Of a stretch of DNA of 32,000 nt, positions 1 to 15,672 are shown in pieces. The notes beneath the pieces are model-generated. The model had not been told where the DNA came from, did no database searches, and saw nothing but the letters and a program-made list of their open reading frames with translations. A program made the translations under genes and the position numbers. The stretch is from contig OY843585.1 of assembly GCA_963692945.1 (NCBI GenBank), forward strand, positions 1,380,001 to 1,412,000, read 5' to 3'. Every line of letters starts with the position of its first letter. Position 1 is the first letter of the stretch. The stretch is from Bdellovibrionales bacterium. Its GTDB lineage: Bacteria > Bdellovibrionota > Bdellovibrionia > Bdellovibrionales > UBA1609.

Positions 1-1284
1 ATTTTCATCGAAGGAATAAAGAAGAATATTTGATATAACTGGAGAAGTACTAGATCCTATAGGTAGAGGATAATCTTCATTTTTCAAAGAATTATCTTTG
101 AAAACTATATCACAAATCAACTTTTTATATCCTTTAAAATGATTTTTACTTTCTAAATATTTTAAGAAGTCTGATCTTTTTATAGATGAAAAAAAATTCT
201 TAAAATCTAATTTTAAAAGAAACTGATTTTTTTGATGTCGTTCTATATTTCTTCTTATACTGTTTTTTTTGATATAAGCTGTTGCAGATGTATGAACAGG
301 AAAAATATGGTTACAATCTAATATTCTTGTTTTTAATATTTTTTGTAAACTTTTTAGATTCTCATCTGGTTCTTTATAATGCTCTCTTTGAGAATATGAA
401 AAGCAGTCTGGACTTATAAAATTTTTGATATATTTTAATAGGATTAAATCACTTTCTTCCTCTCTTTCTGTTTGAATAATAGTATGATGTAAAATACTCA
501 TTTTATTTAATATAGAGCTATCACTTCTTATCAAGCTAAGGTATTTTGTTTGATTGAAATCAGTTTCTTCAACTATAAATTTAAAAGCTTTCAGCATTTT
601 TAGATGGTTATCTAATTTATCTATGTATTTAGTTAGTTTAGTATCTTTTTTAACCTCTTGATATATTTCCTCTTTAGTTTTCCATTCACATAAAATCCCT
701 ATAAGAAAAAAATATAGAGATGTTAAATTATTTGTATTTATTTCTATGTTATAATCTGCTTTATTTCTAAAATTAAAAATTTCTTTAAAAACTTTTTCTT
801 TATGGGATTCATTGCTTTGATCATAGTAAATAATTCTTTCTTTTTCTTTAAGAAATATATCTTCTAATATTGCTTTTTTTATAAATGAGTTTTTTTTACA
901 ATGTTTTTCATCTACTATAATAAGTAATTTCTTTTTTAACTTAGGATTGCAGAAAAAAGCTCCAGTTTCCACCAGTGCTCCATGACCTTCTAAAAAAATG
1001 GGAATAACTGAAGATAACTCTGCAATTTCCATCTCAAATTCAAATAAGTTATTATATCCAGCATTTTCTTCTTTTAAACATTTTTCCCATAAAGTTTCAA
1101 TTTGCTCTGCTAGGATAATTCTTTTGTCAGAAAAAATATTCTCATCGTCTTTGTTGGTAATGAAAACATCTTTATATGTAGATTTTACATGCTTAAGAAA
1201 TGCATTTCTCATAGAATCTGAACAATTAGAACCGCATAAAAATGCAGTATTAGGCAATCTACCTAAGATATGTTTTTTATTCAT
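1..1284 (-). CDS. Reverse transcriptase (retron/Abi-like defence-type RT) with ~320-aa N-terminal extension; partial, with the 3' part of the gene outside the window
   Basis: The minus-strand frame is open from ATG 1284..1282 (in-frame TAA directly upstream) to position 1, 428 codons. It is absent from the ORF track because it runs off the window edge. Hand translation of 300->1 gives PVHTSATAYIKKNSIRRNIERHQKNQFLLKLDFKNFFSSIKRSDF...YPLPIGSSTSPVISNILLYSFDEN. This matches RT motifs 1-3 as seen in retron/group-II-like RTs (xYxxxxS..N..xH, LDhKNFFxSI, LPxGxxTSPxxSN). The N-terminus reads MNKKHILGRLPNTAFLCGSN...AELSSVIPIFLEGHGALVETGAFF. The YxDD motif is not in the window. Confidence 0.7.
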   Translation of the reverse strand, partial: MNKKHILGRLPNTAFLCGSNCSDSMRNAFLKHVKSTYKDVFITNKDDENIFSDKRIILAEQIETLWEKCLKEENAGYNNLFEFEMEIAELSSVIPIFLEGHGALVETGAFFCNPKLKKKLLIIVDEKHCKKNSFIKKAILEDIFLKEKERIIYYDQSNESHKEKVFKEIFNFRNKADYNIEINTNNLTSLYFFLIGILCEWKTKEEIYQEVKKDTKLTKYIDKLDNHLKMLKAFKFIVEETDFNQTKYLSLIRSDSSILNKMSILHHTIIQTEREEESDLILLKYIKNFISPDCFSYSQREHYKEPDENLKSLQKILKTRILDCNHIFPVHTSATAYIKKNSIRRNIERHQKNQFLLKLDFKNFFSSIKRSDFLKYLESKNHFKGYKKLICDIVFKDNSLKNEDYPLPIGSSTSPVISNILLYSFDEN

Positions 1285-1641
1285 TTACAAACTCTATAAA
1301 AAATATAAAACCCCTCTTAATAAGGGGAAGTATATTGAAAACATGAAGTATTTAAAACTGTTTGCAGATATATTCTACCAACACATTAAAAATACTTTAT
1401 TACAAAATACCTGTCAAGATTAGTCGGAAAGTGACAAAAAAGTCAATGACCCTGTGATTGTATCTCTATAGCGATACCTTCTTTTAGATTTTTTTGCTAT
1501 TCTCTATCTTTAATAGATGTTGAAAGAAAGAAGGAAGTCCAAAAATTCCCCTTTTTTTTAATTCATATTTCTAATAGTTATAAGATGATTAAAAAAGAAC
1601 ATAAAAAAGGCTCTAATAAGTTTCAAAGAATATTGCGTTAA

Positions 1642-1800
1642 TTTTTGCAGTGATTGTGCAGTGATTAGACAGTGATTTTTTCGGAAATCACGAGATTTTG
1701 AATGAAATTGAAGGAAACTGGAGGAAAATCAAAGAGCCAGCTTTGTGGCTGGTTTTGTTGAATTTGAAAGCCCAATGCTTTCGTTTTTTTAAGTTTTTTT
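1642..1800 (+). repeat. Structured ~150-nt repeat element, copy 1 (candidate sRNA with intrinsic terminator)
   Basis: This segment is near-identical to 2675-2822. It contains CAGTGATT three times at ~11-nt spacing, a hairpin GTGATTT-TTTCGG-AAATCAC (1672-1691), a hairpin CCAGC-TTTGT-GGCTGG, and a plus-strand terminator GAAAGC-CCAAT-GCTTTC followed by G T7 (1766-1790). Confidence 0.45.
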
Positions 1801-1981
1801 AGGCTAGTTAAAAAGGCTTTTTTTTAAAGCAGAGGAACTCCTCTCTATTTTTAAACTTCTTTGCTTGGATATATTTTTTAGCTTTTAAAAAAGTTATAAA
1901 AGTTTTTCAAAATCTCTAGTAGCAACCACCAAGACTCGGGACACACAATGATTTCTTTAAAAAAACAACTTGAGTTATAAT

Positions 1982-2587
1982 TTAACGGCAATTAAAATTT
2001 CTACATTCTCCTACTGAATTTAATCTACCTACATCCGTTGGGTTACGAGTAGCACAGGAAATCGTATGAAAACCAGGTGAAGTTGTTGCAACAGGGGGCA
2101 GTCGTTGTATAGAGTTACAGCCCATTTGTCTACATGAACTCCCACCAGCATTTGTCCAAGTCTGATCAGTTGGCCAACGAAAAATCCGATAGGATAATTT
2201 CGAACAAGGTATAGGGAAGTTTGCTTTGATGACTTCAGCAAAAGAACCATGACTAGTGCCTCCCTGAGAGCCTTTTAGGCAAATATTAAAACTTTTTATA
2301 CTTTGTTCTAAACAAAACTGGATTCCAGCAGTTGGAACTATTCTGACTTGAAATTTGGTACAATTTGGGCAATTCACACCTATTTGATCTAAAGAGCTAC
2401 AATTACCTATATTGTTTAATATCAGGCAGTTTTCCAATGCTTTAACAACAGTTCTCGTAGATCTGAGAAGTGATTCTTGAGCTGTTGTTCTAACATATTT
2501 TATATACGCAGGAATCACAATAGCAGATAATACACCTATAATTCCTACTACGACTAAAACCTCTATAAAAGAATATCCTTTTTTCAT
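1982..2587 (-). CDS. Type IV pilin-like protein (prepilin N-terminal cleavage/methylation domain), Cys-rich
   Basis: The N-terminus MKKG|YSFIEVLVVVGIIGVLSAIVIPAY has Gly-1, Glu+5 and a hydrophobic alpha1-N helix. The C-terminal half has many Cys and shares the ..GCN.. architecture with the other three pilins. Confidence 0.8.
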   Translation of the reverse strand: MKKGYSFIEVLVVVGIIGVLSAIVIPAYIKYVRTTAQESLLRSTRTVVKALENCLILNNIGNCSSLDQIGVNCPNCTKFQVRIVPTAGIQFCLEQSIKSFNICLKGSQGGTSHGSFAEVIKANFPIPCSKLSYRIFRWPTDQTWTNAGGSSCRQMGCNSIQRLPPVATTSPGFHTISCATRNPTDVGRLNSVGECRNFNCR

Positions 2588-2674
2588 TTGATTTCAAATT
2601 CTTTAAACTTTTTACTAGATTTTTTCTTCATTTTATAAAAAAAATAACAAAGTATTGTAAAATATCTCTGCATT

Positions 2675-2822
2675 ATTTTTGCAGTGATTGTGCGGTGATC
2701 TTTTCGGAAATCACGAGAGTTTGAATGAAATTGAAGGAAAACTGAGGAAAACTAAAAGCTAATATCGTGGTTGATTTTTGTTGAATTTGAAAGCCCAATG
2801 CTTTCGTTTTTTTAAGTTTTTT
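2675..2822 (+). repeat. Structured ~150-nt repeat element, copy 2
   Basis: This is the same element as 1642-1800, with an 11-nt deletion removing one CAGTGATT unit. The terminator GAAAGC-CCAAT-GCTTTC G T7 lies at 2789-2813. It is followed by a 9-bp hairpin AAGGGCTTC-N8-GAAGCCCTT (about 2827-2852). The 65-aa minus-strand ORF 2673..2870 inside it is not conserved in copy 1. Confidence 0.45.
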
Positions 2823-2903
2823 AGTTAAGGGCTTCTCTAAAAGGAAGCCCTTTGATTTATAAAATTTCATTATTTACAAGTACTAACTAATAAATAGAAG
2901 TTA

Positions 2904-3506
2904 TTAAGTACAAGTTCCAGTAGAACTACCACACGTTCCACCAGAAATATATGTTCCAACACAAGTTCCACCAGTAGCAGGAGTTCCTGTTCCTGCTGTA
3001 GAAGTACAACCAGATGGAACTGGGGAAGTACAACCTAAAGCAGAATCTTGTAGATTCGAACATTGATTAGGCTTCCAGTTATTAGCAAGTGAAGAAGCTC
3101 CAGTTGTTGTAGCTATCTGAACACAAGTTTTTGCCGTTGTACCACCTATCTCTGCTTCTGCTGCTACACAAAAAGTATTAGCACCTACACCCACACGTGC
3201 ATTATTTGTTGTACTATCAATACAAGCTTCACAATTTATTCCTATAGCAGAGAGAGTTTGACAACTCGAAAAACCACTAACAGTTAAACAAGCTTGAAAA
3301 GCCTTACTTATATTATGCATTGAACCCAGTAAACTTTGTTGAGCTGCATTCGTTTGATACTTCTGATAGGCTGGTATCGCTACAGCAGCTAATACACCTA
3401 TAATAGCTACAACCACTAAAAGTTCTATCAAGGAAAACCCTTTTTTCCTATTTTGTTTTTTGTTCTTATTTGAAGGCTTGAACCAGCCTATTATTTTTAA
3501 GTCCAT
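2904..3506 (-). CDS. Type IV pilin-like protein with long (23-aa) leader and Cys/Gly/Thr-rich C-terminus
   Basis: The sequence ...KKQNRKKG|FSLIELLVVVAIIGVLAAVAIPAYQKY is a canonical prepilin motif. A strong RBS AAGGAGG lies upstream on the minus strand. The C-terminus is CTSPVPSGCTSTAGTGTPATGGTCVGTYISGGTCGSSTGTCT. Confidence 0.85.
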   Translation of the reverse strand: MDLKIIGWFKPSNKNKKQNRKKGFSLIELLVVVAIIGVLAAVAIPAYQKYQTNAAQQSLLGSMHNISKAFQACLTVSGFSSCQTLSAIGINCEACIDSTTNNARVGVGANTFCVAAEAEIGGTTAKTCVQIATTTGASSLANNWKPNQCSNLQDSALGCTSPVPSGCTSTAGTGTPATGGTCVGTYISGGTCGSSTGTCT

Positions 3507-3779
3507 ATAAGACCTCCTTTTATTGTAAGAGAAATTAAAAATCTAATCCCTGTATATAAAATGATTATTAAGCTTTGGATTAAAATCAATACAAAACTTA
3601 TAAAGCAATGCAAAAAACTTAAGTTTATGTCATTTACCCGACCATTTTATGAACATTCTTTTAATTCAAACCGACCAATTTCTAAACGATCCTAAATTAA
3701 ATAAGGTTTGCCATAAAGTTTTCAGACTATCGTCCGATAAGTGAATCTAGTAACATAACAACAAACCAAAGGAGTAAAA

Positions 3780-3962
3780 ATGGAAATCAAAGAGAAAATT
3801 TTAAACAGAAACAAAGTAGAGGATGTTAGAGAAGTAATGTTAAATTCAATTCTCAAATGTTCTCAAGCTATTTCTGTCTCTCAAAATAATGACTTGTTAA
3901 GTAAATCAAAAGCACTAAAAGAATTATCAGAAGCTTTTTCTTACTTAAAGAATTTTAACTAG
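3780..3962 (+). CDS. Small hypothetical protein (60 aa, predicted helical)
   Basis: An AAAGGAG RBS precedes the ATG. It shares the conserved leader box GTCCGATAAGTGAATCTAGTAACA with the next gene. Confidence 0.5.
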   Translation: MEIKEKILNRNKVEDVREVMLNSILKCSQAISVSQNNDLLSKSKALKELSEAFSYLKNFN

Positions 3963-4004
3963 TCCGATAAATGAAGTTAGTAACAAAAAAACAAAGGAGA
4001 CAAT

Positions 4005-5243: not shown

Positions 5244-5394
5244 TTATAAATAAAACCAGACCTTTATTATTTTTTTGTTGAAAAGACTTTATGTTTTATG
5301 TAAATTCTCCGAAGGTAATAATATACAAGGCTCTATCTTCCTTATTCCCAAGCTTGATAATCTGGTGAGGGTTGGCAGAGGAGCCATTTTTTTT

Positions 5395-6015
5395 ATGCAA
5401 AGAATAGCTTTTATTGTTGATGGTGGATATTTTTGCAAGAGATACAAAGTAAGATATAAAAAATATCCAAATGCAAATGATGTTGAGAAGTATATCACCT
5501 CTATTTTTAAGTATATAAAAAAAGAAAACTCTATACAAAATCTAGAAATATATAGAGTCTTTTATTACGATTGTCCTCCTATTGAGGTTGATTTTCTAAT
5601 ATCAAAATTAGAGAATAAGCAAATATCTACTGAAGATATGGAAAGGTTCTCTGATTATTACAAAGAACAACATAACAACATGAGAAATTTTCATAACAAT
5701 CTAAAAAGAAAAAACTATTTTGCTCTAAGAATGGGCATTTTGCAATTTAAAGGAATAAATGAAAAGTATAAAAAACCGATATTGAATCAAAAAGGAGTAG
5801 ATATGAGGATTGGTTTAGATATAGCTGATATAACTAGTAAAAAATTATGTTCTAAAATTGTTTTAATCTCAGGTGATACGGATATGATTCCAGCTATGAA
5901 AAAAGCAAGAAAAGAAGGCATCCATGTTTATTTGGATATTATGAACGATGCTAAATATACTCTTGATCTTGTTACTCATTCAGATGTCATTTTGAAAAAT
6001 AAAAGATTCATATAG
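5395..6015 (+). CDS. NYN-domain (LabA/DUF88-like) predicted RNase
   Basis: MQRIAFIVDGGYF... is a typical NYN N-terminus, and GVDMRIGLDIADI...IVLISGDTDMIPAMKKARKEGIHVY provides the acidic motifs. I chose ATG 5395 (GAGGAG upstream) over the track's TTG 5275, because the extra 40 aa start inside the att region and look non-coding. Confidence 0.7.
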   Translation: MQRIAFIVDGGYFCKRYKVRYKKYPNANDVEKYITSIFKYIKKENSIQNLEIYRVFYYDCPPIEVDFLISKLENKQISTEDMERFSDYYKEQHNNMRNFHNNLKRKNYFALRMGILQFKGINEKYKKPILNQKGVDMRIGLDIADITSKKLCSKIVLISGDTDMIPAMKKARKEGIHVYLDIMNDAKYTLDLVTHSDVILKNKRFI

Positions 6016-6109: not shown

Positions 6110-6556
6110 ATGAACACCACATTAAATGGCATGATAGAAAAAGATTATTTAACTGACCGCTTAGATGACCAAATTAGATGGTATTCTTCAAAAAGTTCGA
6201 AGTGTAAAAAATGGTTTCTAATAATGCGTACGTTCGAAATCACTATTGCTGCTATTATTCCAGTGCTATTCTACCTTCCTGTCAAAAGTAGCATTCCATT
6301 CCTTAGTGCAATTATTATAATTTTAGTCAGTTTAATCAGTTTGTTTAAATTTCACGAAAATTGGCTTTTATATAGAACAACTAGCGAATCTCTAAAGCAC
6401 GAAAAATATCTCTATCTCACAAATACCAAACCATACAATAGAGAAAATAAACTGGTGATACTTGTACAAAATGTGGAAGAGATTATATCTTCAGAAAATA
6501 GTTTATGGAAACAAAAAACTTTATCTAATAACAATGAAGGAGGGTTAAGTAGATGA
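6110..6556 (+). CDS. SLATT-type (DUF4231-like) two-TM predicted effector
   Basis: LDDQIRWYSSKSSKCKKWF is followed by two hydrophobic helices (FEITIAAIIPVLFYL and FLSAIIIILVSLISLF). Then comes HENWLLYRTTSESLKHEKYLYL, the pattern I recall for DUF4231/SLATT. Confidence 0.65.
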   Translation: MNTTLNGMIEKDYLTDRLDDQIRWYSSKSSKCKKWFLIMRTFEITIAAIIPVLFYLPVKSSIPFLSAIIIILVSLISLFKFHENWLLYRTTSESLKHEKYLYLTNTKPYNRENKLVILVQNVEEIISSENSLWKQKTLSNNNEGGLSR

Positions 6557-7020
6557 AAATATTTATTAGTTACGACTATAGCAACGATGGGAAATACAAA
6601 AATATGCTTCTTGCTTGGGATGGAAATAAAAAATTTGACTTTAATTTCCATGATACTTCTGCTGATGTATCTATTAATAGTCATGATGCTGGCGTAATCA
6701 AAAGAGCTATTTCTGCAAAAATTAATGAGTCTGATATCGTTATTTGTATTATTGGAAATCAAACTCACAAGAGTAAATGGGTAGAGTGGGAAATAAACAA
6801 AACTGTCGATCTCAAAAAACCTATTGTTGCAGTAAAATTAGACACGAAATTTAAATCTCCGAATGTAATTCAAAATGTTGGTGCTAAATGGGCAATGACT
6901 TTTGATTTTGAATCGATCAAAAAAGCTATTGAGTTGCACCACTCCCAACCTAGCTTTACCATAAATAAGGGAGCAGCTGGTAATCCAAGTACACCCCCTC
7001 CTCCCCCTTGGAGTTACTAA
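6553..7020 (+). CDS. TIR-like domain protein (DUF1863 / ThsB-type)
   Basis: The start overlaps the SLATT stop (ATGA). MKIFISYDYSNDG..., SDIVICIIGNQTHKSKWVEWEINK and KPIVAVKL match the TIR-like (MTH538/DUF1863) pattern. The tail is Pro-rich (STPPPPPWSY). Confidence 0.65.
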   Translation: MKIFISYDYSNDGKYKNMLLAWDGNKKFDFNFHDTSADVSINSHDAGVIKRAISAKINESDIVICIIGNQTHKSKWVEWEINKTVDLKKPIVAVKLDTKFKSPNVIQNVGAKWAMTFDFESIKKAIELHHSQPSFTINKGAAGNPSTPPPPPWSY

Positions 7021-7021
7021 T

Positions 7022-7741
7022 TTGGATTGGGATTATTCTAAGGAAGACTCTTCTTTTCTCAAAGAACATCAGTCGGAATTAAGGTATGACCATTCAAAAA
7101 AAGTGTTACTTGGATGTTTACACTTTAAAGCTAAAAATTTTGATAAAGAAATTGAAGATCATTATGAGATAGAAATTGATTTTAATCAAACATGTCCTCT
7201 ACCTTCAGTTAAAGAAACAAATGGTAGAATTGAGCAAATAGCAAAAAAGAAAAATAAGAATCTTGTAGACCTCCATGTAGACACACCTGATAGAATGCTA
7301 TGCCTGTGCTCTAGAATAAAAGCATTTGAATATTCAGAAAAATTCAATATAAGTAATTCTCCTATTGCTGATTTTATTACAGATCTGATAATACCATTTT
7401 TTTATAGTTTAAGCTATTTTGAAAAATTTAACGAATATCCATTTGGAGAATTGAAACATGGTATCCCTGGGCTTGTTAAAGATATGAAAGATAATTTACC
7501 AATTTTTTTAAAATACTCAGATCAATATCAAGAAATGAAATCAACAGAATTCAATAATTTGATTAATAGTTATATTAAACAAGATACAAAACTAGCTGAA
7601 AAATGTAAGCCAATCTCCCGAAAAATTGGTCGGAATGAACGATGCCCTTGCGGCAGTGGTATTAAATATAAAAAGTGCCATATTGAAAAAAAACATTTAT
7701 TATTGATAGAGAAAATAAAAAATCACGTTAATCACCACTAA
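7022..7741 (+). CDS. SEC-C zinc-motif protein with N-terminal domain showing an E2/UBC-like signature (tentative)
   Basis: The TTG start is 1 nt after the upstream stop, with GGAG 8 nt upstream. There is no in-frame ATG for about 90 codons. The C-terminus RNERCPCGSGIKYKKCH is a SEC-C motif. The N-terminal YEIEIDFNQTCPLPSVKE...DLHVDTPDRMLCLCS resembles the E2 beta-sheet plus HPN-x-Cys loop. Confidence 0.55.
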   Translation: MDWDYSKEDSSFLKEHQSELRYDHSKKVLLGCLHFKAKNFDKEIEDHYEIEIDFNQTCPLPSVKETNGRIEQIAKKKNKNLVDLHVDTPDRMLCLCSRIKAFEYSEKFNISNSPIADFITDLIIPFFYSLSYFEKFNEYPFGELKHGIPGLVKDMKDNLPIFLKYSDQYQEMKSTEFNNLINSYIKQDTKLAEKCKPISRKIGRNERCPCGSGIKYKKCHIEKKHLLLIEKIKNHVNHH

Positions 7742-7971: not shown

Positions 7972-8703
7972 TCATTTTTTACATAACCATTTGGAATAAG
8001 TTTTAATATCTATCATAGAAACAGTAGCTTTTAATTGTAATTGTGAAATAAAATAAAACAGAAATAATGTTGCAGATTCTTTCTTATTAAAAATCTCATA
8101 CTTCTTTTTCTTTTGATTATAAGAAAAATAGCCATGGGACAAAATACAACCTAAATCTAACACACCAACATCTTTTCTTTTATTAAGCGATTTTTCCAAA
8201 GATTTTCCTAAAGGCGTCTGCCAATCACTTTCAAAAGCTAAAATCCCTCCAGAAATATATGGAGGGTCTTTAGGTTCATATTCTCCTCCTGCATGTGGAA
8301 TAGGAAGACTAGTTCTAAATAATTTTCTTACACTTTCTATTTTTTTTTGAGCATAAGAAATTGCATCAGAATCAACTTTTTGCTTAACCTCAAATACAGC
8401 ATAAACACTTTCAGCGGGAAGAATAGTTACTTCATTAAACTTAAAGAGGATAGGAGAATATTGACGATCAAATATAACTATATCTATTTGCTCACTAAAA
8501 TTATTTTTACTATCAACAACATGAGCTCTTGTTGCTTGATAACGTTCGGGCAGATAGTTTTGAAAAATTTTTAACCATGCTTTTTCAGTAGAATCTCCTT
8601 TAACTACAGGGTGATAATTCATGTTTTTATAAGAAATCTCCAATTCATTTTGAATTGAACTATGTATGGAAGAAAAAATCTTACTTAAGGAACAATCTTT
8701 CAT
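7972..8703 (-). CDS. nucC: CBASS effector endonuclease NucC (restriction-endonuclease fold)
   Basis: It is 243 aa and is the last gene of the operon, with an ATGA overlap with the AAA+ gene. The PD-(D/E)xK-type motif is QIDIVIFDRQYSP...AESVYAVFEVKQ. SLPIPHAGG and FESDW strings match what I recall of NucC. Confidence 0.8.
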   Translation of the reverse strand: MKDCSLSKIFSSIHSSIQNELEISYKNMNYHPVVKGDSTEKAWLKIFQNYLPERYQATRAHVVDSKNNFSEQIDIVIFDRQYSPILFKFNEVTILPAESVYAVFEVKQKVDSDAISYAQKKIESVRKLFRTSLPIPHAGGEYEPKDPPYISGGILAFESDWQTPLGKSLEKSLNKRKDVGVLDLGCILSHGYFSYNQKKKKYEIFNKKESATLFLFYFISQLQLKATVSMIDIKTYSKWLCKK

Positions 8704-9632
8704 ATAGAATCCTCTCTAAAAGGTGGTGTGGGAATAATCTGTTTTGCAATTTCTATAGCACGCTTTGGTTCAATAGCTTTATCAGGGTAGGCATCAATTA
8801 TAATTTGAGATAATAGTCGATGAGTCAAATCAGAAAATGTAAAGCCATAATTACGAACTTTATTTTTTCCTGTAGCTTCTACAATAGATTCAATATTTTT
8901 TTCAGAAAAACCAAAGTCTTTTAAAAACTGTAGCAATAAGAATCGCTGTTTTTCATCTGGTCTTTTAAAAGTTAAAATATTTGTGGAACGACGTTTTATT
9001 GCTGGATCAAGAGCATTAGTTCTATTGGTACACATTATTATTACTACAGGTATTTTATTGTTTTTAATCTTATCAATACCTCGAATAAAGGCATTAACCC
9101 CTGCTCGATCTTCATGATGCATTTGCATTGTCTCTCTTGACTGAGCTAAAGCATCAGCTTCATCTATAAGAAAAATGATAGCTCCACTACATTTATCTTT
9201 TTGTTTTAACTTTTGAGCTTCAGAAGTTACATGATTAAAAGCACTTGATAAGAGTTGTGTCATTTCACCAACCCTTCCTCTTCCTCGTGTTGAAAGACTT
9301 AATGGAAACAATGTAATATTAAGATTTTCTTTTCTTGCCACAGCATCACCTATTGTTTCTGCCAACTCAGATTTTCCACAACCAACATCACCCTCAAGGA
9401 CAACTAAAGGAGAGATTCTAAACAATGCATTTAATGAATCTTTAGAACTTTTTGGATGATATTTTTTAATCCATGTTTCCATGCCAGAATAATTAATTAT
9501 TAAGCTTATTATTTTCATCAAATTTGTTTTATGATTATCTAATCCAACCAATTGATCAAATCGCTCCTTATAATCAATATCAGGGTATTGAATATGTTTT
9601 TCAAATAACTCATTCATGCTTGGTTGATTCAT
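8700..9632 (-). CDS. cap6: CBASS TRIP13/Pch2-like AAA+ ATPase (Cap6)
   Basis: Walker A is GDVGCGKSELAE and Walker B is AIIFLIDEADAL. It is 310 aa and sits between the HORMA-size gene and nucC. Confidence 0.8.
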   Translation of the reverse strand: MNQPSMNELFEKHIQYPDIDYKERFDQLVGLDNHKTNLMKIISLIINYSGMETWIKKYHPKSSKDSLNALFRISPLVVLEGDVGCGKSELAETIGDAVARKENLNITLFPLSLSTRGRGRVGEMTQLLSSAFNHVTSEAQKLKQKDKCSGAIIFLIDEADALAQSRETMQMHHEDRAGVNAFIRGIDKIKNNKIPVVIIMCTNRTNALDPAIKRRSTNILTFKRPDEKQRFLLLQFLKDFGFSEKNIESIVEATGKNKVRNYGFTFSDLTHRLLSQIIIDAYPDKAIEPKRAIEIAKQIIPTPPFREDSI

Positions 9633-9636
9633 AGTT

Positions 9637-10149
9637 CTAACTCCTTAAAATTTTTCTTGTTATACTTCTTCCTCCCGAAGAGTATGTAAGATCTTCAATA
9701 AAACTTCCTTTAAAAGATGGCTCTTGTCCAACTACTCTTGAAAATGGAAATGATTTTTGAATTGTGTTTTGTTCTTCCGGTGATAACTTATACCATTTTT
9801 GATTATATTCTAAAAAACTAGTAAAATGTGCACCAGAAACATCTGCCCATGGAGGAATTTTTCCTGGATCATCATCATCTCCACAGTCTATCATTAACTT
9901 ATCAGAAGTATATTCTAAAGTTTGTTCAATATATTGTTCATCTTTTTTAAAGCCATAAATAACAAATTTAAAAATATTGTGCATTAACAGTATAACAACT
10001 TCCTTGTAATACTGTTCAATTTCATGATCGCTTGGTGCTCCATAAAGTCTTTGGATGCGTTTTAAGTCAGTCTGTATTTTACTTGCTAAATACCCCGCAT
10101 TTGTTTTTGTAAAAACTTCAGTGTCTGATTCAGTATAACTATAACTCAT
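9637..10149 (-). CDS. cap7: CBASS HORMA-domain protein (Cap7)
   Basis: It is 170 aa and sits immediately downstream of the CD-NTase (GGAGGA RBS) and upstream of TRIP13, the canonical type III CBASS position and size. I cannot verify the fold by eye. Confidence 0.65.
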   Translation of the reverse strand: MSYSYTESDTEVFTKTNAGYLASKIQTDLKRIQRLYGAPSDHEIEQYYKEVVILLMHNIFKFVIYGFKKDEQYIEQTLEYTSDKLMIDCGDDDDPGKIPPWADVSGAHFTSFLEYNQKWYKLSPEEQNTIQKSFPFSRVVGQEPSFKGSFIEDLTYSSGGRSITRKILRS

Positions 10150-10160
10150 TATATTCCTCC

Positions 10161-11117
10161 CTATTTAAAAAAAGATGATCCAAAAATTTTTTGCCAATAA
10201 TATACCGTCTTTTGTTTTGTAGTAGCGTATAGGGCAGCGTCTATAGCATCTCCAGCTTCTAAAGATTTTTCAACAATTATACTAACCATTTCTTTAGAAT
10301 AATTTTTACTTACATTATTACTCTTATTCACAGGGTCAATAATTTGCACTGGATCATCAAAACTTTCTAAATATACTGCTTCATAGTAATCAAAAAACTC
10401 TATACGCTTTTGCAACTGACTTGTAGCAATGTAAGTGAAAAAATGTTGAAGAACCTCAGGATAATCAGAGAAATCGAAACCCTTATCTAAAAGATGAGCT
10501 AATATGATCTCTACCATAAAAGATTTGAATTTGAAATCAGGGTTTTCTCGTTTTGTTTTTTGTATCCAAAATTTTATCAAACGAACTATTTGCGAAAAAT
10601 GCTCACACTTTTCTTTTCTCTTTTGTATAAACTTAATGTGTCTTAGAATATTAGTTTTAAGGAGAGTTCCATCCTCTTGACTTATTAAATCACCGTCCCA
10701 ATTTGAATCACCATTATATAAAATAGGTACAATATCAACATCTAGACCTGTGCCACGAAATGATATTTTCAAGCTATAGTTTTGACATGTAATTTGATCA
10801 CTATTGAAATTGGGAAATTTTGAACATAAATAATTAGATAAGTCTTGTAATAAATTTTGAATATTAAATTCTTCACCTTTTATATAACAAGCCACATCTA
10901 TATCATTCAATGATCGTAAAGCTGTTCCTTTAGCTAAGCTCCCAGATAAGATCATTTTCCTTAATTTGAAATCTGGATTAGTACCAAGATATTCCTCTAA
11001 TTTCTCTCTTAAATTTCTCACTTGAGCACGATATTTATCAGATTTGTCTTTTGGTAAGTTAACTTGATTCTGAGCAAAATTAACTATCTCTTTGTGGTTT
11101 ACATATTCCCTTGACAT
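10161..11117 (-). CDS. cdnC: cGAS/DncV-like nucleotidyltransferase (CD-NTase, CdnC-like)
   Basis: The Pol-beta NTase active-site pattern is present: GSLAKGTALRSLNDIDVACY (G-S...DxD) with a third acidic motif GLDVDIVP. It is 318 aa and is the first gene of a four-gene operon. Confidence 0.8.
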   Translation of the reverse strand: MSREYVNHKEIVNFAQNQVNLPKDKSDKYRAQVRNLREKLEEYLGTNPDFKLRKMILSGSLAKGTALRSLNDIDVACYIKGEEFNIQNLLQDLSNYLCSKFPNFNSDQITCQNYSLKISFRGTGLDVDIVPILYNGDSNWDGDLISQEDGTLLKTNILRHIKFIQKRKEKCEHFSQIVRLIKFWIQKTKRENPDFKFKSFMVEIILAHLLDKGFDFSDYPEVLQHFFTYIATSQLQKRIEFFDYYEAVYLESFDDPVQIIDPVNKSNNVSKNYSKEMVSIIVEKSLEAGDAIDAALYATTKQKTVYYWQKIFGSSFFK

Positions 11118-11270: not shown

Positions 11271-11624
11271 ATGAAAAAACTCAATAAAGACACTATAAAA
11301 AAGAGAATTACTACAGAAAGAGAGAAAAGAGGTTGGACACAGGCTGAGCTAGCTAAAAAAGCAAGAATCACTCCTGCTGCTATATGTCAAATTGAAAAAG
11401 GAGATCGCACACCAACAATTCCCGTTCTCCATCGAATAGCTCAAGTTCTTCAAGTTTCATTAGATTATTTAGCTGGATATAAAGATTCTGTAGAACAAGA
11501 GGATGTTCAAAAGAATTCAGAGTTAAAAGTATTTTTCAGAAAATACAGAAAACTTGATCAAAAAGATAAAGAATTTATTGAAACCTACATTCATACAATA
11601 TCAAAAACAAAGGAAAAAAAATAA
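11271..11624 (+). CDS. capH: XRE-family HTH repressor (CapH-like CBASS regulator)
   Basis: The HTH is WTQAELAKKARITPAAICQIEKGDRTPTIPVLHRIAQVLQVSLDYL. It is divergent from the CBASS operon and its stop overlaps the peptidase start (TAATG). Confidence 0.75.
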   Translation: MKKLNKDTIKKRITTEREKRGWTQAELAKKARITPAAICQIEKGDRTPTIPVLHRIAQVLQVSLDYLAGYKDSVEQEDVQKNSELKVFFRKYRKLDQKDKEFIETYIHTISKTKEKK

Positions 11625-12490
11625 TGTGTCCTAAAAAGGAAGCTGGAAAAATTTTGGAAGAGATGGGAATAGATGAACTACCTATTGATCCTGTAAAAAT
11701 TATTGATTCTTTAGATATTAAAAGAATGGATCATGATTTTAATAGTATTGAAGGGTTTTCTTTTTTTGACCCTAAAAACAAGAAATTTCATATAGGTGTA
11801 AACTCTCAAATCACAAACCTGCAAAGAAAAAAATTCACCTATGCTCATGAATTAGGACATGTATGTTTAGATGGAGGCAACCTTAATAGTTGCCAACAAA
11901 GTGATATTAATTGTTTTAAAAGGTTAGATCCAAGTGAAATAAATGCTAATACATTTGCCAGCCACTTATTACTTCCTGAGTCTTTAATAAAAGATAAAAT
12001 CAAGGGCATAGAACCAAGCTGGGATGAAATTTCCAAACTGTCTAAGATAACACAAACATCTTTAATAACAGCTGCCACTCGTTTTATTGAACTTACTGAT
12101 CATATATGTTTATTAGCTGTAATTGGAGAAAATAAATGTATTAAATATTTTAAAAAATCTCAAAGTTGGTTTTTGCATTTTGATATGAATAGTCGCATTA
12201 TTGCTACTGAATCTTGTACACATAAATCTTTTTTAAGAAAGGAGTCCTCTGACTTTACAAATATTCAAGCTAACCTTTGGATAGATGATAAAAGAGTATC
12301 TCCTGATGCTCAACTTTTGGAATGGTCACTCCCTATCAATTCTTATCGAGAAGTATTAACTCTTCTTTGGGATGATGAAGGGCTTTTAGAAAGTAATGAA
12401 TATGAAAATAATCAGATATTTCATGACAACACTAATAAAATAGGAGGAGTTTGGTCTCCACCTACATTCCATAAAAGTAAAAGAAAATAA
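11624..12490 (+). CDS. capP: ImmA/IrrE-family Zn-metallopeptidase (CapP-like CBASS regulator)
   Basis: The HExxH motif is FTYAHELGHVCL, with the downstream ANTFASHLLLPE typical of the ImmA/IrrE family. It is 288 aa with a C-terminal domain of about 150 aa. Confidence 0.75.
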   Translation: MCPKKEAGKILEEMGIDELPIDPVKIIDSLDIKRMDHDFNSIEGFSFFDPKNKKFHIGVNSQITNLQRKKFTYAHELGHVCLDGGNLNSCQQSDINCFKRLDPSEINANTFASHLLLPESLIKDKIKGIEPSWDEISKLSKITQTSLITAATRFIELTDHICLLAVIGENKCIKYFKKSQSWFLHFDMNSRIIATESCTHKSFLRKESSDFTNIQANLWIDDKRVSPDAQLLEWSLPINSYREVLTLLWDDEGLLESNEYENNQIFHDNTNKIGGVWSPPTFHKSKRK

Positions 12491-12672: not shown

Positions 12673-13230
12673 ATGAGCATTCAAGAGACCGAAGAAATTA
12701 CTTTTAATTGTACACATGGAACATTTAAATCTAATAGTAATAAAATACTTGAAGATAGATTTAATTTTAGCGATGGCACTTGTGGTGAAGCTGTCTATTT
12801 TTGGACTGGTATTGATGGTTTTATAATAGACTTAGCTAAGGATTGGGTTAACTTAAAAAAGAAAAAAACTGAAAATGAAGGTGCTGTCATTAGTTGTAAA
12901 ATAAAAGTTCCTGAACATAGTATAATCGACCTTTCTTCGTTTGAGATGATTAAAGAATACAGCAATTTTATTTTAAAAAAGGGGCATAAAAATTTATGCA
13001 ATTTAAATAAAAAAAGCAGAATCACTATATTAAAAGATTTCTTAGAGACTTTTACTTTTGAAAGTGGAAGAGATTATATTTGCTACCTGACAAGACATTT
13101 TATGGAAACAGATGAAAATTTTACATTTCCTGTTAAAATTTTTGGACACCCCTTTTGTTTGGTTGTAAAGTCACTAGAAGTTATTCCTCGTAATTTAATT
13201 TCTAGTGACTTTACTATCACTCAAAAATAA
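12673..13230 (+). CDS. Hypothetical protein with ADP-ribosyltransferase-like H-Y-E signature (tentative)
   Basis: NCTHGTFKSNSNKILEDRFNFSDGTCGEAVYFW fits the HG(S/T)-x(8-10)-I-x(3)-F ... G-x-x-(V/I)-Y-F pattern of PARP/DarT-like ARTs. A possible catalytic Glu lies in KSLEVIP. The gene is preceded by a GTCCGATA box. Confidence 0.35.
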   Translation: MSIQETEEITFNCTHGTFKSNSNKILEDRFNFSDGTCGEAVYFWTGIDGFIIDLAKDWVNLKKKKTENEGAVISCKIKVPEHSIIDLSSFEMIKEYSNFILKKGHKNLCNLNKKSRITILKDFLETFTFESGRDYICYLTRHFMETDENFTFPVKIFGHPFCLVVKSLEVIPRNLISSDFTITQK

Positions 13231-13781: not shown

Positions 13782-13980
13782 AAAGATTTAAAATCTCTAG
13801 TCTGTTTTTAGATATACTATAATAACCTATTTATTCAATAAATATTTGCTTACTATAGTAAGTGTCTCAATTTGTTCCATTAAAAAAAGCCTTGTTTATC
13901 CAAATTCCATAAAAAAAATTTGTTTTATGTATGTTATGGTCCATAATTTTATTTTGAACACATAAAAAAAGGAATTGATT

Positions 13981-14634
13981 ATGATCAATATAAAAAGAGA
14001 ATCTCGCTCTTGCTTTAGAAAAAATAAAGGGTTTTCACTAATAGAGTTACTTGTAGTTGTAGCCATTATTGGAATTTTAGTTGCTGTGGCTATACCAACA
14101 TACAGTCACTATAAAGTAGATGCCGCTCAATCTTCATTGACGGCTTCTCTACACTCTGTCGGAAAGGCATTTGCTGCTTGTCTTGCATTGAGATCCTTTA
14201 GTAATTGTAACAGCCTATCAGAATTGAAAGTGAGTTGTCCGGACTGTACTAAAGAATCCACTGGAAGAACCGCTATACCTTATTGTGTTGAAGCTAAATT
14301 ACAAGCAGGAGGAATAAACCATAAGGCATGTATGTCTTCTTCGGGAGGAATTCCTTCAATTACTGGTAACTGGGACAGTCTTTGTAAAGATGTAATAGCA
14401 GTTTATATTTGTGACAATGATGGTTTTGGATTTATTCCATTAAATCCAACTGTTTGTAGTCAGATAGGTTGTCTTAACCCATCTGCAATTAAGCCAAAAA
14501 ATAATCAACAGAAATGCAACGCAAATATTGAACGTGCATACCATAATTGTGGTGATGATAATAACCCTGAAGCTCGTTCAAGACATAGTAGTTTTGTTGG
14601 AAATTGTGATGTTAATACTGGACTGTGTAGTTAA
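13981..14634 (+). CDS. Type IV pilin paralog A (17-aa leader, Cys-rich)
   Basis: MINIKRESRSCFRKNKG|FSLIELLVVVAIIGILVAVAIPTY. ATG 13981 has AGGA 7 nt upstream and is preferred over the track's TTG 13975. The first ~130 aa are almost identical to 15022-15672, and the C-terminal ~85 aa are divergent. Confidence 0.85.
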   Translation: MINIKRESRSCFRKNKGFSLIELLVVVAIIGILVAVAIPTYSHYKVDAAQSSLTASLHSVGKAFAACLALRSFSNCNSLSELKVSCPDCTKESTGRTAIPYCVEAKLQAGGINHKACMSSSGGIPSITGNWDSLCKDVIAVYICDNDGFGFIPLNPTVCSQIGCLNPSAIKPKNNQQKCNANIERAYHNCGDDNNPEARSRHSSFVGNCDVNTGLCS

Positions 14635-14729: not shown

Positions 14730-15021
14730 ATATTTATTAGCTAAACTTTTTATCTACTTTGGAACTTCTAAACAACTTTATAAAGATTGATTCTTGAACT
14801 TGATAAGTTTCTACCTAGAATTTTTAAAAAATAGAGATTTCAATATCAAGTGTTAAACTATTGAGCTGTAATAAAAGTGTCTCAATTTGTTTCACTGAAA
14901 AAAGTGTCTCAATTTGTTTTACTAAAAAAGCCTTAGTTTATTTGATTCTATAAAAAAATTTTTAATTTATGTATCTAATGAGTCATAATTTTATTTTAAA
15001 CAATAACAAAAGGAGTTAATG

Positions 15022-15672
15022 ATGTTTAACATAAATAAAAAGGTTCGTTCTTGCTTTAGAAAGAATAAAGGATTTTCACTAATAGAATTACTTGTAGTTG
15101 TAGCAATTATTGGAATTCTAGTTGCTGTGGCTATACCAACATACAATCACTATAAAGTGGATGCTGCTCAATCTTCATTGACAGCCTCTCTACACTCTGT
15201 CGGAAAAGCTTTTGCTGCTTGTCTTGCATTGAGATCTTTTAGTAATTGCAATAGTCTATCAGAGCTGAAAGTGAGTTGTCCTGACTGTACTAAAGAATCC
15301 ACTGGAAGAACGGCTATACCTTATTGTGTTGAAGCTAAATTACAGGCAGGAGGAATAGACCATAAGGCATGTATGTCTTCTTCAGGAGGAATTCCTTCAG
15401 TTACTGGTAACTGGAATGGTCTTTGTAAGAACATGTCAGTAACCTACGTTTGTAATGCTACAGGTAATGGATATGATCCAGCAACTACAACTTGTAGGAA
15501 TATAGGTTGTAATAATCCATCTCAAGCTATCCCATCAATACCAGGAGGTGTATGTACACCAAATGTTGGTAGTCTCAACCATAACTGTGGTGATGACAAT
15601 AATCCTGAAGCTCGTTCAACAGCTAGTAATCTTAATGGAAGTTGTGACACTACAACTGGATTATGTAGTTAA
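15022..15672 (+). CDS. Type IV pilin paralog B (17-aa leader, Cys-rich)
   Basis: MFNINKKVRSCFRKNKG|FSLIELLVVVAIIGILVAVAIPTY. The AGGAG RBS at 15011-15015 favours ATG 15022 over 15019. The C-terminal region is variable but retains HNCGDDNNPEARS and the ...TGLCS end. Confidence 0.85.
   Translation: MFNINKKVRSCFRKNKGFSLIELLVVVAIIGILVAVAIPTYNHYKVDAAQSSLTASLHSVGKAFAACLALRSFSNCNSLSELKVSCPDCTKESTGRTAIPYCVEAKLQAGGIDHKACMSSSGGIPSVTGNWNGLCKNMSVTYVCNATGNGYDPATTTCRNIGCNNPSQAIPSIPGGVCTPNVGSLNHNCGDDNNPEARSTASNLNGSCDTTTGLCS

Follow-up and report, generated by a model that had tools for sequence, protein, structure and literature searches.

The window analysed here is a 32,000-nucleotide stretch of Bdellovibrionales DNA (positions 1,380,001 to 1,412,000 of contig OY843585.1, assembly GCA_963692945.1), and on its minus strand it opens with the 5′ part of a gene for one protein that joins a whole type II-A retron effector to the amino-terminus of a retron reverse transcriptase (RT). 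The open reading frame (ORF) begins with an ATG at 1284-1282, directly preceded by an in-frame TAA (1287-1285), and exits the left window end after 428 codons; the window thus carries positions 1..1284 of the gene, the remainder lying past its left edge. The full product, P0001, was recovered as a 588-residue collection protein that is 100% identical over the 428 window residues. From the amino-terminus the chain consists of a nucleoside deoxyribosyltransferase (NDT)-like, N-glycosidase-type effector domain (residues ~9-183, 736..1260), delimited by the PADLOC NDT_II-A and Ec86 effector profile matches, and a winged-helix-like C-lobe of the effector module (residues ~187-250, 535..726), recognised from the STM3845_fam profile, AlphaFold2 secondary structure and Foldseek. 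A variable linker follows (residues ~251-303, 376..534), bounded by alignment A2, the predicted local distance difference test (pLDDT) and the start of the RT profile match, and then the amino-terminal part of the RT domain (residues 304-428, 1..375), matched by Pfam RVT_1 and PADLOC RT_II-A. An initial annotation, made from the letters alone, had remarked that the RT motifs begin late behind a long amino-terminal extension; RT similarity does start at about residue 304-307, behind an extension of ~300 amino acids.

The RT half matched RVT_1 above its cut-off from residue 307 (307-426 in the window part) and the PADLOC RT_II-A model over residues 304-561 of the full protein (6.6e-76; 304-427 in the window part), with RT_I-A next. 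It passed the NCBIfam model retron_St85_RT with 236.5 bits against a cut-off of 235. Other NCBIfam RT models remained far under their cut-offs, including group II (55.8 against 300), Drt2 (44 against 390) and Drt3a (40 against 200); the Ec67 model gave 104 against 450 and the RT-TIR model 95 against 600. The best solved relatives found with the family profile were clade-1 retron RTs (entry 22et 'Retron', Ec78/Eco7 and Ec83), with the Ec86 effector for the amino-terminal part, and the top Foldseek matches for the RT were the Ec83, Ec78 and Eco7 RTs. The initial annotation had asked where the RT stands among retron and other RTs, and these matches place it in the retron St85 family, clade-1 (St85/Ec78-type). 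Retron RTs are defined by a retron-specific NAxxH motif and a VTG triplet (PMC7736814). In P0001 the N-x-x-x-H motif reads N346-I-E-R-H350 (NIERH; family consensus NAEKH), and the counterpart of VTG is I-T496-G497 within RKITG, with a conservative I for V throughout the family. The catalytic YGDD occupies residues 443-446, most relatives having YADD, and D360 (motif A), Y443, D445 and D446 are invariant across the family. NIERH and Asp360 lie within the window, and recovery of the full RT, also called for by the initial annotation, supplied the YGDD and ITG beyond its edge. Judged by these residues, the RT is catalytically intact and of clade-1 (St85/Ec78-type).

The effector half matched PADLOC NDT_II-A over residues 9-260 (4e-37; 9e-37 with the full protein) and passed STM3845_fam, the NCBIfam model of the St85 effector, whose profile positions 9-255 (of 277) it covered at 109.1 bits, the cut-off being 100 (110 bits for the window part); its linkage to the RT is covalent. 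A broader amino-terminal profile matched the Ec86 effector (7v9x_C) over residues 13-183 with an E-value of 1.2e-20. Glu106 (codon GAA at 969-967), which sits in ALVETGAF, aligns to E106 of the Ec86 effector, its reported catalytic residue (bioRxiv 10.1101/2023.08.16.553469), and its column is exactly where the wild-type and E106A chains of 8QBL differ. Residues E99, G102, E106, G108 and F110 are invariant and are also found in canonical Ec73-like and Vibrio effectors (11 sequences for E106). An AlphaFold2 model of the whole protein, built from 10 sequences, reached a mean pLDDT of 60 and served solely to obtain coarse Foldseek matches and the secondary structure of single regions. Residues 187-250 form a helix-helix-helix-strand-strand unit (pLDDT ~70-87), and Foldseek aligned 278-346 columns of the model, low in confidence overall, to whole Ec86 effector chains (~302-306 residues). 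By these matches the effector half is an NDT-like N-glycosidase lobe with an intact, putatively catalytic Glu106 and a winged-helix lobe. The initial annotation had proposed that the two domains of Ec86/St85-type effectors are fused to the RT and had singled out the motif IPIFLEGHGALVETGAFF, which contains Glu106. This domain reading is correct, the motif included, because curated hidden Markov models of both halves, the Ec86 profile, the aligned catalytic glutamate, the Foldseek matches and a recurrent fused ORF all agree with it.

The linker, ~50 residues long, is variable in length and poorly conserved in alignment A2, has a pLDDT below 50 (residues 252-322), and stands where the carboxy-terminal tail of a canonical effector and the first ~40 RT-profile positions would be. 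An exhaustive protein search covered 1.84 billion representatives. Ten full-length fused proteins of 587-608 amino acids, 52-56% identical to the query and from separate assemblies, carry both PF28093 (STM3845) and PF00078 in precomputed domain matches, and all ten keep the reading frame across the dedicated linker. A scan of species-representative genomes located the family in Bdellovibrionales metagenome-assembled genomes (MAGs). A sister protein from a Bdellovibrionales MAG, P0018 (552 amino acids, 37% identical; its lineage is represented by loci L139/L140), is also fused, as are a second family of ~600-690 amino acids with at least 26 clusters containing both domains, one from a Methyloligellaceae MAG, and a further protein, P0140 (587 amino acids). 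Both St85 models were matched in all of these. In a crude neighbour-joining tree of RT domains, which carries no support values, fused proteins fall at at least three places among unfused RTs. Plasmid and phage records gave no match covering 80% of the protein; the RT half alone does match there. The fusion is genuine and recurrent, with at least two further fused lineages. In one Bdellovibrionales MAG (OZ251471.1, locus L007, 5001-6756) the fused ORF is broken after 237 codons and resumes as a 343-residue RT-only product, P0014. This locus is probably a decaying copy or a sequencing error.

Between the gene and its upstream neighbours, an alignment of 10-11 loci is conserved only from a -35 box onwards to the ATG, the last ~135 nt, which hold a promoter and a leader of ~80 nt. 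The sigma-70-type promoter (1389..1417, minus strand) combines a -35 TTGACA at 1417-1412, a 17-nt spacer and a -10 TATTTT at 1394-1389, scoring 10/12 in a consensus scan; the TTGACA box had been picked out as promoter-like by the initial annotation. A TTGAC-type -35 and a TAT-type -10 element, 17-19 nt apart, are readable by eye in most aligned loci of this first family. The exceptions are L007, where the sequence upstream of the leader is different, GC-rich and without a TTGACA box, L011, where the -10 is unclear, and L010, where an insertion sequence (IS) element follows the leader. Several loci, the window not among them, have an A/T-rich GAAATAATTTA 5′ of the -35 box. Transcription is predicted to start at or just before G1382.

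The leader begins with stem-loop 1 (SL1; 1360..1382, minus strand), GUUgGUAG-AAUAUAU-CUGCaAAC, called from the consensus fold and its compensatory changes. All 7 of its pairs form in 11/11 sequences, sister lineage included, with two compensatory changes (U-A to C-G in L005, G-C to C-G in L139) and a U.G to C-G switch that fits an RNA of the minus strand. An unpaired, almost invariant G lies beside its 3-bp outer helix. A single-stranded spacer follows (1336..1359, minus strand), unpaired in the consensus fold and made up, in alignments A3 and A5, of a conserved AGUUUUAAAUAC and then ~10-14 variable nt; by eye it could pair with the start codon region in four loci (the window, L003, L008 and L011), not in the others. 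Stem-loop 2 (SL2; 1296..1335, minus strand) reads AUAUA-CUU-CCCCUU-loop-GAGGGG-UUU-UAUAU (1335-1303) with a T-rich tail. It has 13 pairs and an internal loop, an AUAUA/UAUAU outer helix and a CCCC.../...GGGG inner helix, with compensatory changes in 4/8 pairs of the latter. With a terminator-like call at 1327-1311, SL2 looks like an intrinsic terminator, and termination there is predicted.

RNAalifold predicts both hairpins, with 97% of cells paired against 41-65% when the partners are slid, and the covariation observed was reached by 0/500 shuffles. Counted by regular-expression search, the leader motif occurs exactly once 5′ of the gene in 13/13 loci with 5′ sequence, among them L139/L140 and L010. 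In L010 (1993-3001) the IS element, with an rve-family transposase gene at 2388-2978, lies between the leader (starting at 1993) and the ATG of an otherwise intact fused gene. The leader is the sole consistently stable segment in or around the gene: the homologous loci showed no conserved non-coding RNA (ncRNA) 3′ of the RT gene and no consistently stable window inside the ORF or linker. A scan of metagenome contigs with the 18-nt leader core CTGCAAACAGTTWTAMAT returned 120 matches, 0/120 at loci with a full leader.

We compared this leader with canonical loci, namely the Ec73-like Escherichia coli locus L012, the Vibrio locus L013, three Ec78-type loci (L141-143) and an Acinetobacter locus (L145). 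The canonical order is a promoter; a1 (7-10 nt); the branch G; C or U; a first msr hairpin, often starting GUUGG; a second hairpin and a CCAGAC..UAAUUUAUUG strand; a long msd hairpin; a2; a GC-rich hairpin with a T tract; ~15-27 nt; and the first ORF. At the 5′ end canonical clade-1 loci read a1-G-C/U-(G)UU(G/A)GG. In the aligned loci of the Bdellovibrionales fused family there is no counterpart of a1, the branch G, the C/U, the second hairpin with CCAGAC..UAAUUUAUUG, the msd or a2, and RSL2 with its following single strand, the strongest canonical clade-1 msr columns, has no counterpart in the leader. SL1 does resemble the Vibrio msr stem-loop 1 GUUGGUUUUGUUACAAACAG: the outer GUU/AAC helix, the G-A mismatch and the trailing AG occur in both. 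Because of these features and the canonical element order, we read SL1 as a possible remnant or counterpart of msr stem-loop 1, and SL2 as a candidate counterpart of the terminator-like hairpin that follows a2. In L012 (1327-1348), L013 (1376-1400), L141/L142 and L143 (within 1380-1670), which represent types I-A and II-A1, a2 is separated from the first ORF by a GC-rich hairpin that carries a T tract. This suggests that the canonical clade-1 ncRNA is usually terminated separately from the mRNA, a point for which we found no discussion in the literature consulted for retron background.

Searches for the remaining hallmarks gave little. RNAduplex between the flanks found no a1/a2 beyond shuffles, and scans for ungapped helices, both close to the leader and across 600 nt upstream, found no recurrent position in 11 loci; the same scan returned a1/a2 as its top match in L134, a locus of the canonical type. 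A weak pairing of AAAGUAU with AUAUUUU did recur, but it coincides with the -10 box and probably reflects base composition. Rfam at a permissive threshold gave chance-level matches only over positions 1-4000, with no retron msr. The two bases before GUUGG vary within the family (GU, UA, AU, AG, AA, GA), and the predicted transcription start either coincides with them or follows them; an alternative branch G may lie inside SL1. When a long msd hairpin of 10-50 bp was sought, the sole hairpin at the leader besides SL1 was SL2, which is placed like the canonical terminator hairpin. The longest hairpin of the window (13153-13226; 31-nt arms, 84% complementary, 12-nt loop) lies in the 3′ end of ORF 12673-13230. 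It was rejected as an msd since it is in an unrelated ORF 12 kb away.

Among known retrons the closest are those of type II-A1 (Retron-Sen2/St85, Retron-Eco3/Ec73 and Retron-Vmi1), tripartite toxin-antitoxin defence systems. They have the same RT and effector families (both NCBIfam St85 models are passed) and the same order of RNA element, effector and RT; a terminator-like hairpin before the first ORF is common to both, and their msr starts GUUGG, with the Vibrio member's stem-loop 1 resembling SL1. In type II-A1, as in II-A3, effector and RT are nevertheless separate proteins (in canonical L012, L013 and L146 from two genes that abut or overlap), whereas here they form one 588-residue chain. 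The type II-A1 ncRNA is ~165 nt long, with an a1 of ~10 nt, the branch G at position 12, two msr hairpins and a 73-85-nt msd; the leader here has ~80 nt and lacks a1/a2, the branch-G context, the CCAGAC..UAAUUUAUUG segment and the long hairpin. Also missing are the first ~40 RT-profile positions and the effector carboxy-terminal tail. Retron-Eco1 (Ec86, type II-A3) has an effector of the same two-lobed, NDT-like plus DNA-binding architecture, with the catalytic glutamate aligned, but its proteins are separate, its ncRNA is canonical, with an 85-nt multicopy single-stranded DNA (msDNA) bound by the effector, and its RT, of clade 9, matched less well, at 113 bits where the best clade-1 RT in the PDB reached 198.

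Other fused retrons differ in which parts are joined. In type II-A2 only the winged helix is fused to the RT amino-terminus and the NDT domain is separate (Mestre et al. 2020, PMC7736814), whereas here NDT, winged helix and RT share one chain. PADLOC has a 477-position RT_II-A model with an RT part from about position 229 onwards, a model that we take for the II-A2 form; the P0001 RT scored 143 bits against it and 254 against the plain model PDLC02939. A Bacillus mycoides plasmid locus (L144, 571-2853) has an St85-family effector gene and a 395-residue RT gene separated by a 200-nt gap; it may be a II-A2-like form, or may carry an ncRNA between the genes. The single-protein retrons (Retron-Eco2/Ec67 with RT-Toprim, I-C; RT-TIR, XII; RT-protease, XI; RT-DUF3800, VII) also combine one polypeptide with an upstream ncRNA, but their effectors are carboxy-terminal and of unrelated folds, and their RTs are of other clades. 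Besides the winged-helix-only II-A2, Mestre et al. 2020 and a 2021 review list only carboxy-terminal effector fusions (PMC7736814, PMC8632793). The whole-effector amino-terminal fusion, found at at least three places in our crude RT tree, is not among the architectures listed in the classification and reviews searched, and full-text literature searches found no paper describing one. NCBI naming files the fused architecture as plain RT; the Methyloligellaceae MAG protein, for example, is named 'retron St85 family RNA-directed DNA polymerase'.

That protein belongs to the second fused family (with P0033, P0037 and P0164), which has the same effector-RT order and passes both St85 models, while its RT is ~35-40% identical and stands in another part of the tree. 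Its RT amino-terminus is retained: RT profiles match from positions 1-19, against 42-45 in the family of P0001 and in P0018. It also keeps a canonical ncRNA (L134, 2850-2996; L137, 2586-2717). In L134 (z = -4.79) its a1 is TGATTTTTAT, followed by G; a 24-bp hairpin forms the msd, and a2, ATAAAAATCA, stops 4 nt short of the ATG. Since this family retains a textbook ncRNA, fusion alone does not explain the reduction seen in the Bdellovibrionales family. The loci of the second family adjoin type I restriction-modification genes.

With moderate confidence, we propose that the locus derives from a type II-A1 (St85/Sen2/Ec73-family) retron and encodes its proteins as a single polypeptide, with the leader RNA as the ligand of the RT and the effector inhibited in cis. 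Retrons are understood as three-part systems whose RT, together with msDNA, restrains a separate toxin, and RT-msDNA is the antitoxin of RcaT in Retron-Sen2 (PMC8632793). In Retron-Eco1, RT-msDNA binds the N-glycosidase effector 1:1, and once the msDNA is modified by a phage methylase, that effector hydrolyses NAD(P)+ (PMC12673091). Here, the conserved sigma-70 promoter would drive the gene through the ~80-nt leader, and termination at SL2 would produce the leader in excess over the full-length mRNA. With SL1 and the spacer as contacts, the RT domain might then bind its own leader RNA, perhaps with the addition of no more than a short, non-canonical cDNA. In this ribonucleoprotein state the fused N-glycosidase domain would be held inactive in cis, much as RT-msDNA holds RcaT and the Ec86 effector in trans. 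Phage interference with the nucleic-acid ligand would free the effector, leading to hydrolysis of NAD(P)+ or nucleotides and to abortion of the infection. The fusion fits the stoichiometry, because RT and effector act 1:1 in the solved Retron-Eco1 complex.

Other explanations were weighed against this one. It is barely credible that the long ORF is an artefact of assembly or frameshift, or else a pseudogene in decay, uniting effector and RT genes that are really separate. Canonical effector and RT genes do abut or overlap by a few bases, where one indel could merge them, the ORF is broken in L007 and several short fragments exist (P0011-P0014), but ten independent full-length proteins conserve the frame across the linker, fusion is also seen in the 37%-identical P0018 and in a distinct family comprising at least 26 clusters, and the catalytic residues are invariant in both halves. 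Very improbable too is the a1/a2-type msr-msd RNA of ~220-340 nt suggested by the initial annotation, which would yield ordinary msDNA from a canonical RNA upstream, with AAAAAGGGGAATTTT (1555-1541) and ATACTTCCCCTTATT (1334-1320) as a1 and a2. Their complementarity is real (12/15, with an 8-nt perfect core), and the single-sequence minimum-free-energy fold of 1285-1620 uses it; the pairing is, however, not conserved and no better than chance, matches of 8-11 nt at such distances occurring several times per homologous locus at unrelated positions. The G-box cannot be aligned in any homologous locus and lies 5′ of the conserved promoter, which would itself fall within such an RNA, and the end of the upstream neighbour gene in L002 and L003 is too near for one to fit. 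The a1 candidate is followed by TT and not by G. Nor did the region 1285-1620 behave as the long structured element it had been taken for: its z was -1.65, with 5/100 shuffles folding equally well, against -4.79 and -6.65 for true retron ncRNAs folded likewise. Only the last ~135 nt, promoter and two-hairpin leader, are conserved. The CCCC partner instead pairs locally, with covariation, to AGGGG at about 1313, an alternative that the initial annotation had mentioned and that corresponds to the conserved hairpin SL2.

Two further explanations accept the leader and assign it another role. One, which we regard as rather unlikely but the strongest competitor, is that it is purely cis-regulatory, with SL1 as an operator or mRNA-stability hairpin and SL2 as an attenuator that keeps down the expression of a toxic protein, while the template is an msr-msd elsewhere in the genome or the RT is only a structural antitoxin. 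SL2 fits the intrinsic-terminator pattern, SL1 is a near-palindrome at the predicted transcription start, no template-like structure was found nearby, and the DNA-binding winged helix of the fused protein could autoregulate. On the other hand, retron RTs are specific for the adjacent ncRNA in all characterised systems (PMC7736814), and the leader travels with the gene through mobile, varied contexts in 13/13 loci, which would be odd if a distant RNA were needed. SL1 also looks like an msr element, its G.U to G-C variation speaks for RNA rather than a DNA operator, and the RT has kept its catalytic residues. We think it improbable that the leader is instead a miniature retron ncRNA, SL1 being the msr and SL2 a short msd (~35-50 nt), from which a small msDNA would be primed at G1382, G1379 or G1378 with no a1/a2 duplex. 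A short hairpin, a single strand and a longer hairpin do follow the msr-then-msd order, the 13-pair stem of SL2 is within the 10-50 bp quoted for msd stems (PMC7736814), the RT core is intact and SL1 has its unpaired, almost invariant G next to the outer helix. Yet no a1/a2 pairing occurs at a consistent position, the nucleotides at the canonical branch-G position (two bases before GUUGG) are unconserved, and the position, GC clamp and T tract of SL2 match the post-a2 terminator hairpin and not an msd. The second fused family, moreover, keeps a1-G, a 24-bp msd and a2, so fusion itself leaves them needed.

Several points also weigh directly against a single-polypeptide retron with an RNA ligand. 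The RT active site is fully conserved, which is the chief reason to suppose that some DNA synthesis persists, yet no template with retron hallmarks was found. The search for a template covered the window and the homologous loci; elsewhere in the 1.56-Mb genome an msr-msd could be encoded in trans. At the DNA level, SL1 forms an imperfect palindrome where transcription is predicted to begin and might serve as an operator, though its G.U to G-C variation points rather to RNA. Its likeness to an msr amounts to 13 shared bases and the shape in one canonical retron and a GUUGG start in two others, and could have arisen by convergence. Both the transcription start and termination at SL2 are predictions, and the leader is represented by 11-13 sequences from a single order.

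A narrower and more tentative suggestion, which we regard as possible but doubtful, is that this lineage is a retron that gave up its msd and classical msDNA. The ncRNA would have shrunk after the fusion to one msr-derived hairpin and a terminator, leaving either an RNA ligand alone or a very short cDNA made without a1/a2 priming, by means of which the RT domain would sense the effector or hold it. An msd-less state would be surprising; if true, it would make the locus a toxin-antitoxin switch of retron origin, encoded by one gene and gated by RNA. As for the fusion, it is an incremental extension, present in other lineages too, and the conserved leader, which appears to lack the defining features of a retron ncRNA, may matter more. 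A Bdellovibrionales lineage that appears to lack a1/a2 and a long msd, set beside a second fused family with them, raises the question of whether msDNA is indispensable for the antitoxin or whether an RNA hairpin is enough. The single chain is a natural form of the best-studied toxin class (RcaT / Ec86 N-glycosidase) with a fixed stoichiometry, and the fused protein offers a compact object for structural and mechanistic work on effector silencing by an RT-nucleic acid module. A very small RT-ncRNA pair would also be of interest for retron engineering.

The surroundings of the gene contain other defence genes. A complete type III CBASS (cyclic oligonucleotide-based antiphage signalling system) operon occupies 7972-11117 on the minus strand (PADLOC E-values 1e-57 to 1e-127), with CD-NTase at 10161-11117, HORMA at 9637-10149, TRIP13 at 8700-9632 and the NucC nuclease at 7972-8703. 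On the plus strand, the ORF of a two-transmembrane SLATT/DUF4231 protein (6110-6556) runs into the first bases of the one for a ThsB-like TIR protein (6553-7020). These two are likely a two-gene defence pair; they are flanked by a NYN-domain ORF (5275-6015) and a SEC-C-motif ORF (7022-7741). The homologous fused loci adjoin transposase, integrase, RES, KAP NTPase, Fic and AAA_13 genes. A role of the fused protein in defence is supported by the CBASS and SLATT-TIR genes in the window and by the mobile and defence genes around its homologues.

Next to the fused gene, the segment 1641-1799 repeats a module that the neighbouring pilin genes have on their 3′ side. It is one copy of a ~160-nt direct repeat (1641-1799 and 2664-2822; 82-100% identical, spacing 1023) that contains terminator-like hairpins, and each of two type IV pilin-like genes on the minus strand (1982-2587 and 2904-3506) is followed by one copy. 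Two more pilin paralogues lie at 13975-14634 and 15019-15672. ORF 12673-13230 lies just downstream of a gene pair at 11271-12490, which was labelled from reading the translations as an XRE-type helix-turn-helix protein with an HExxH peptidase-like partner.

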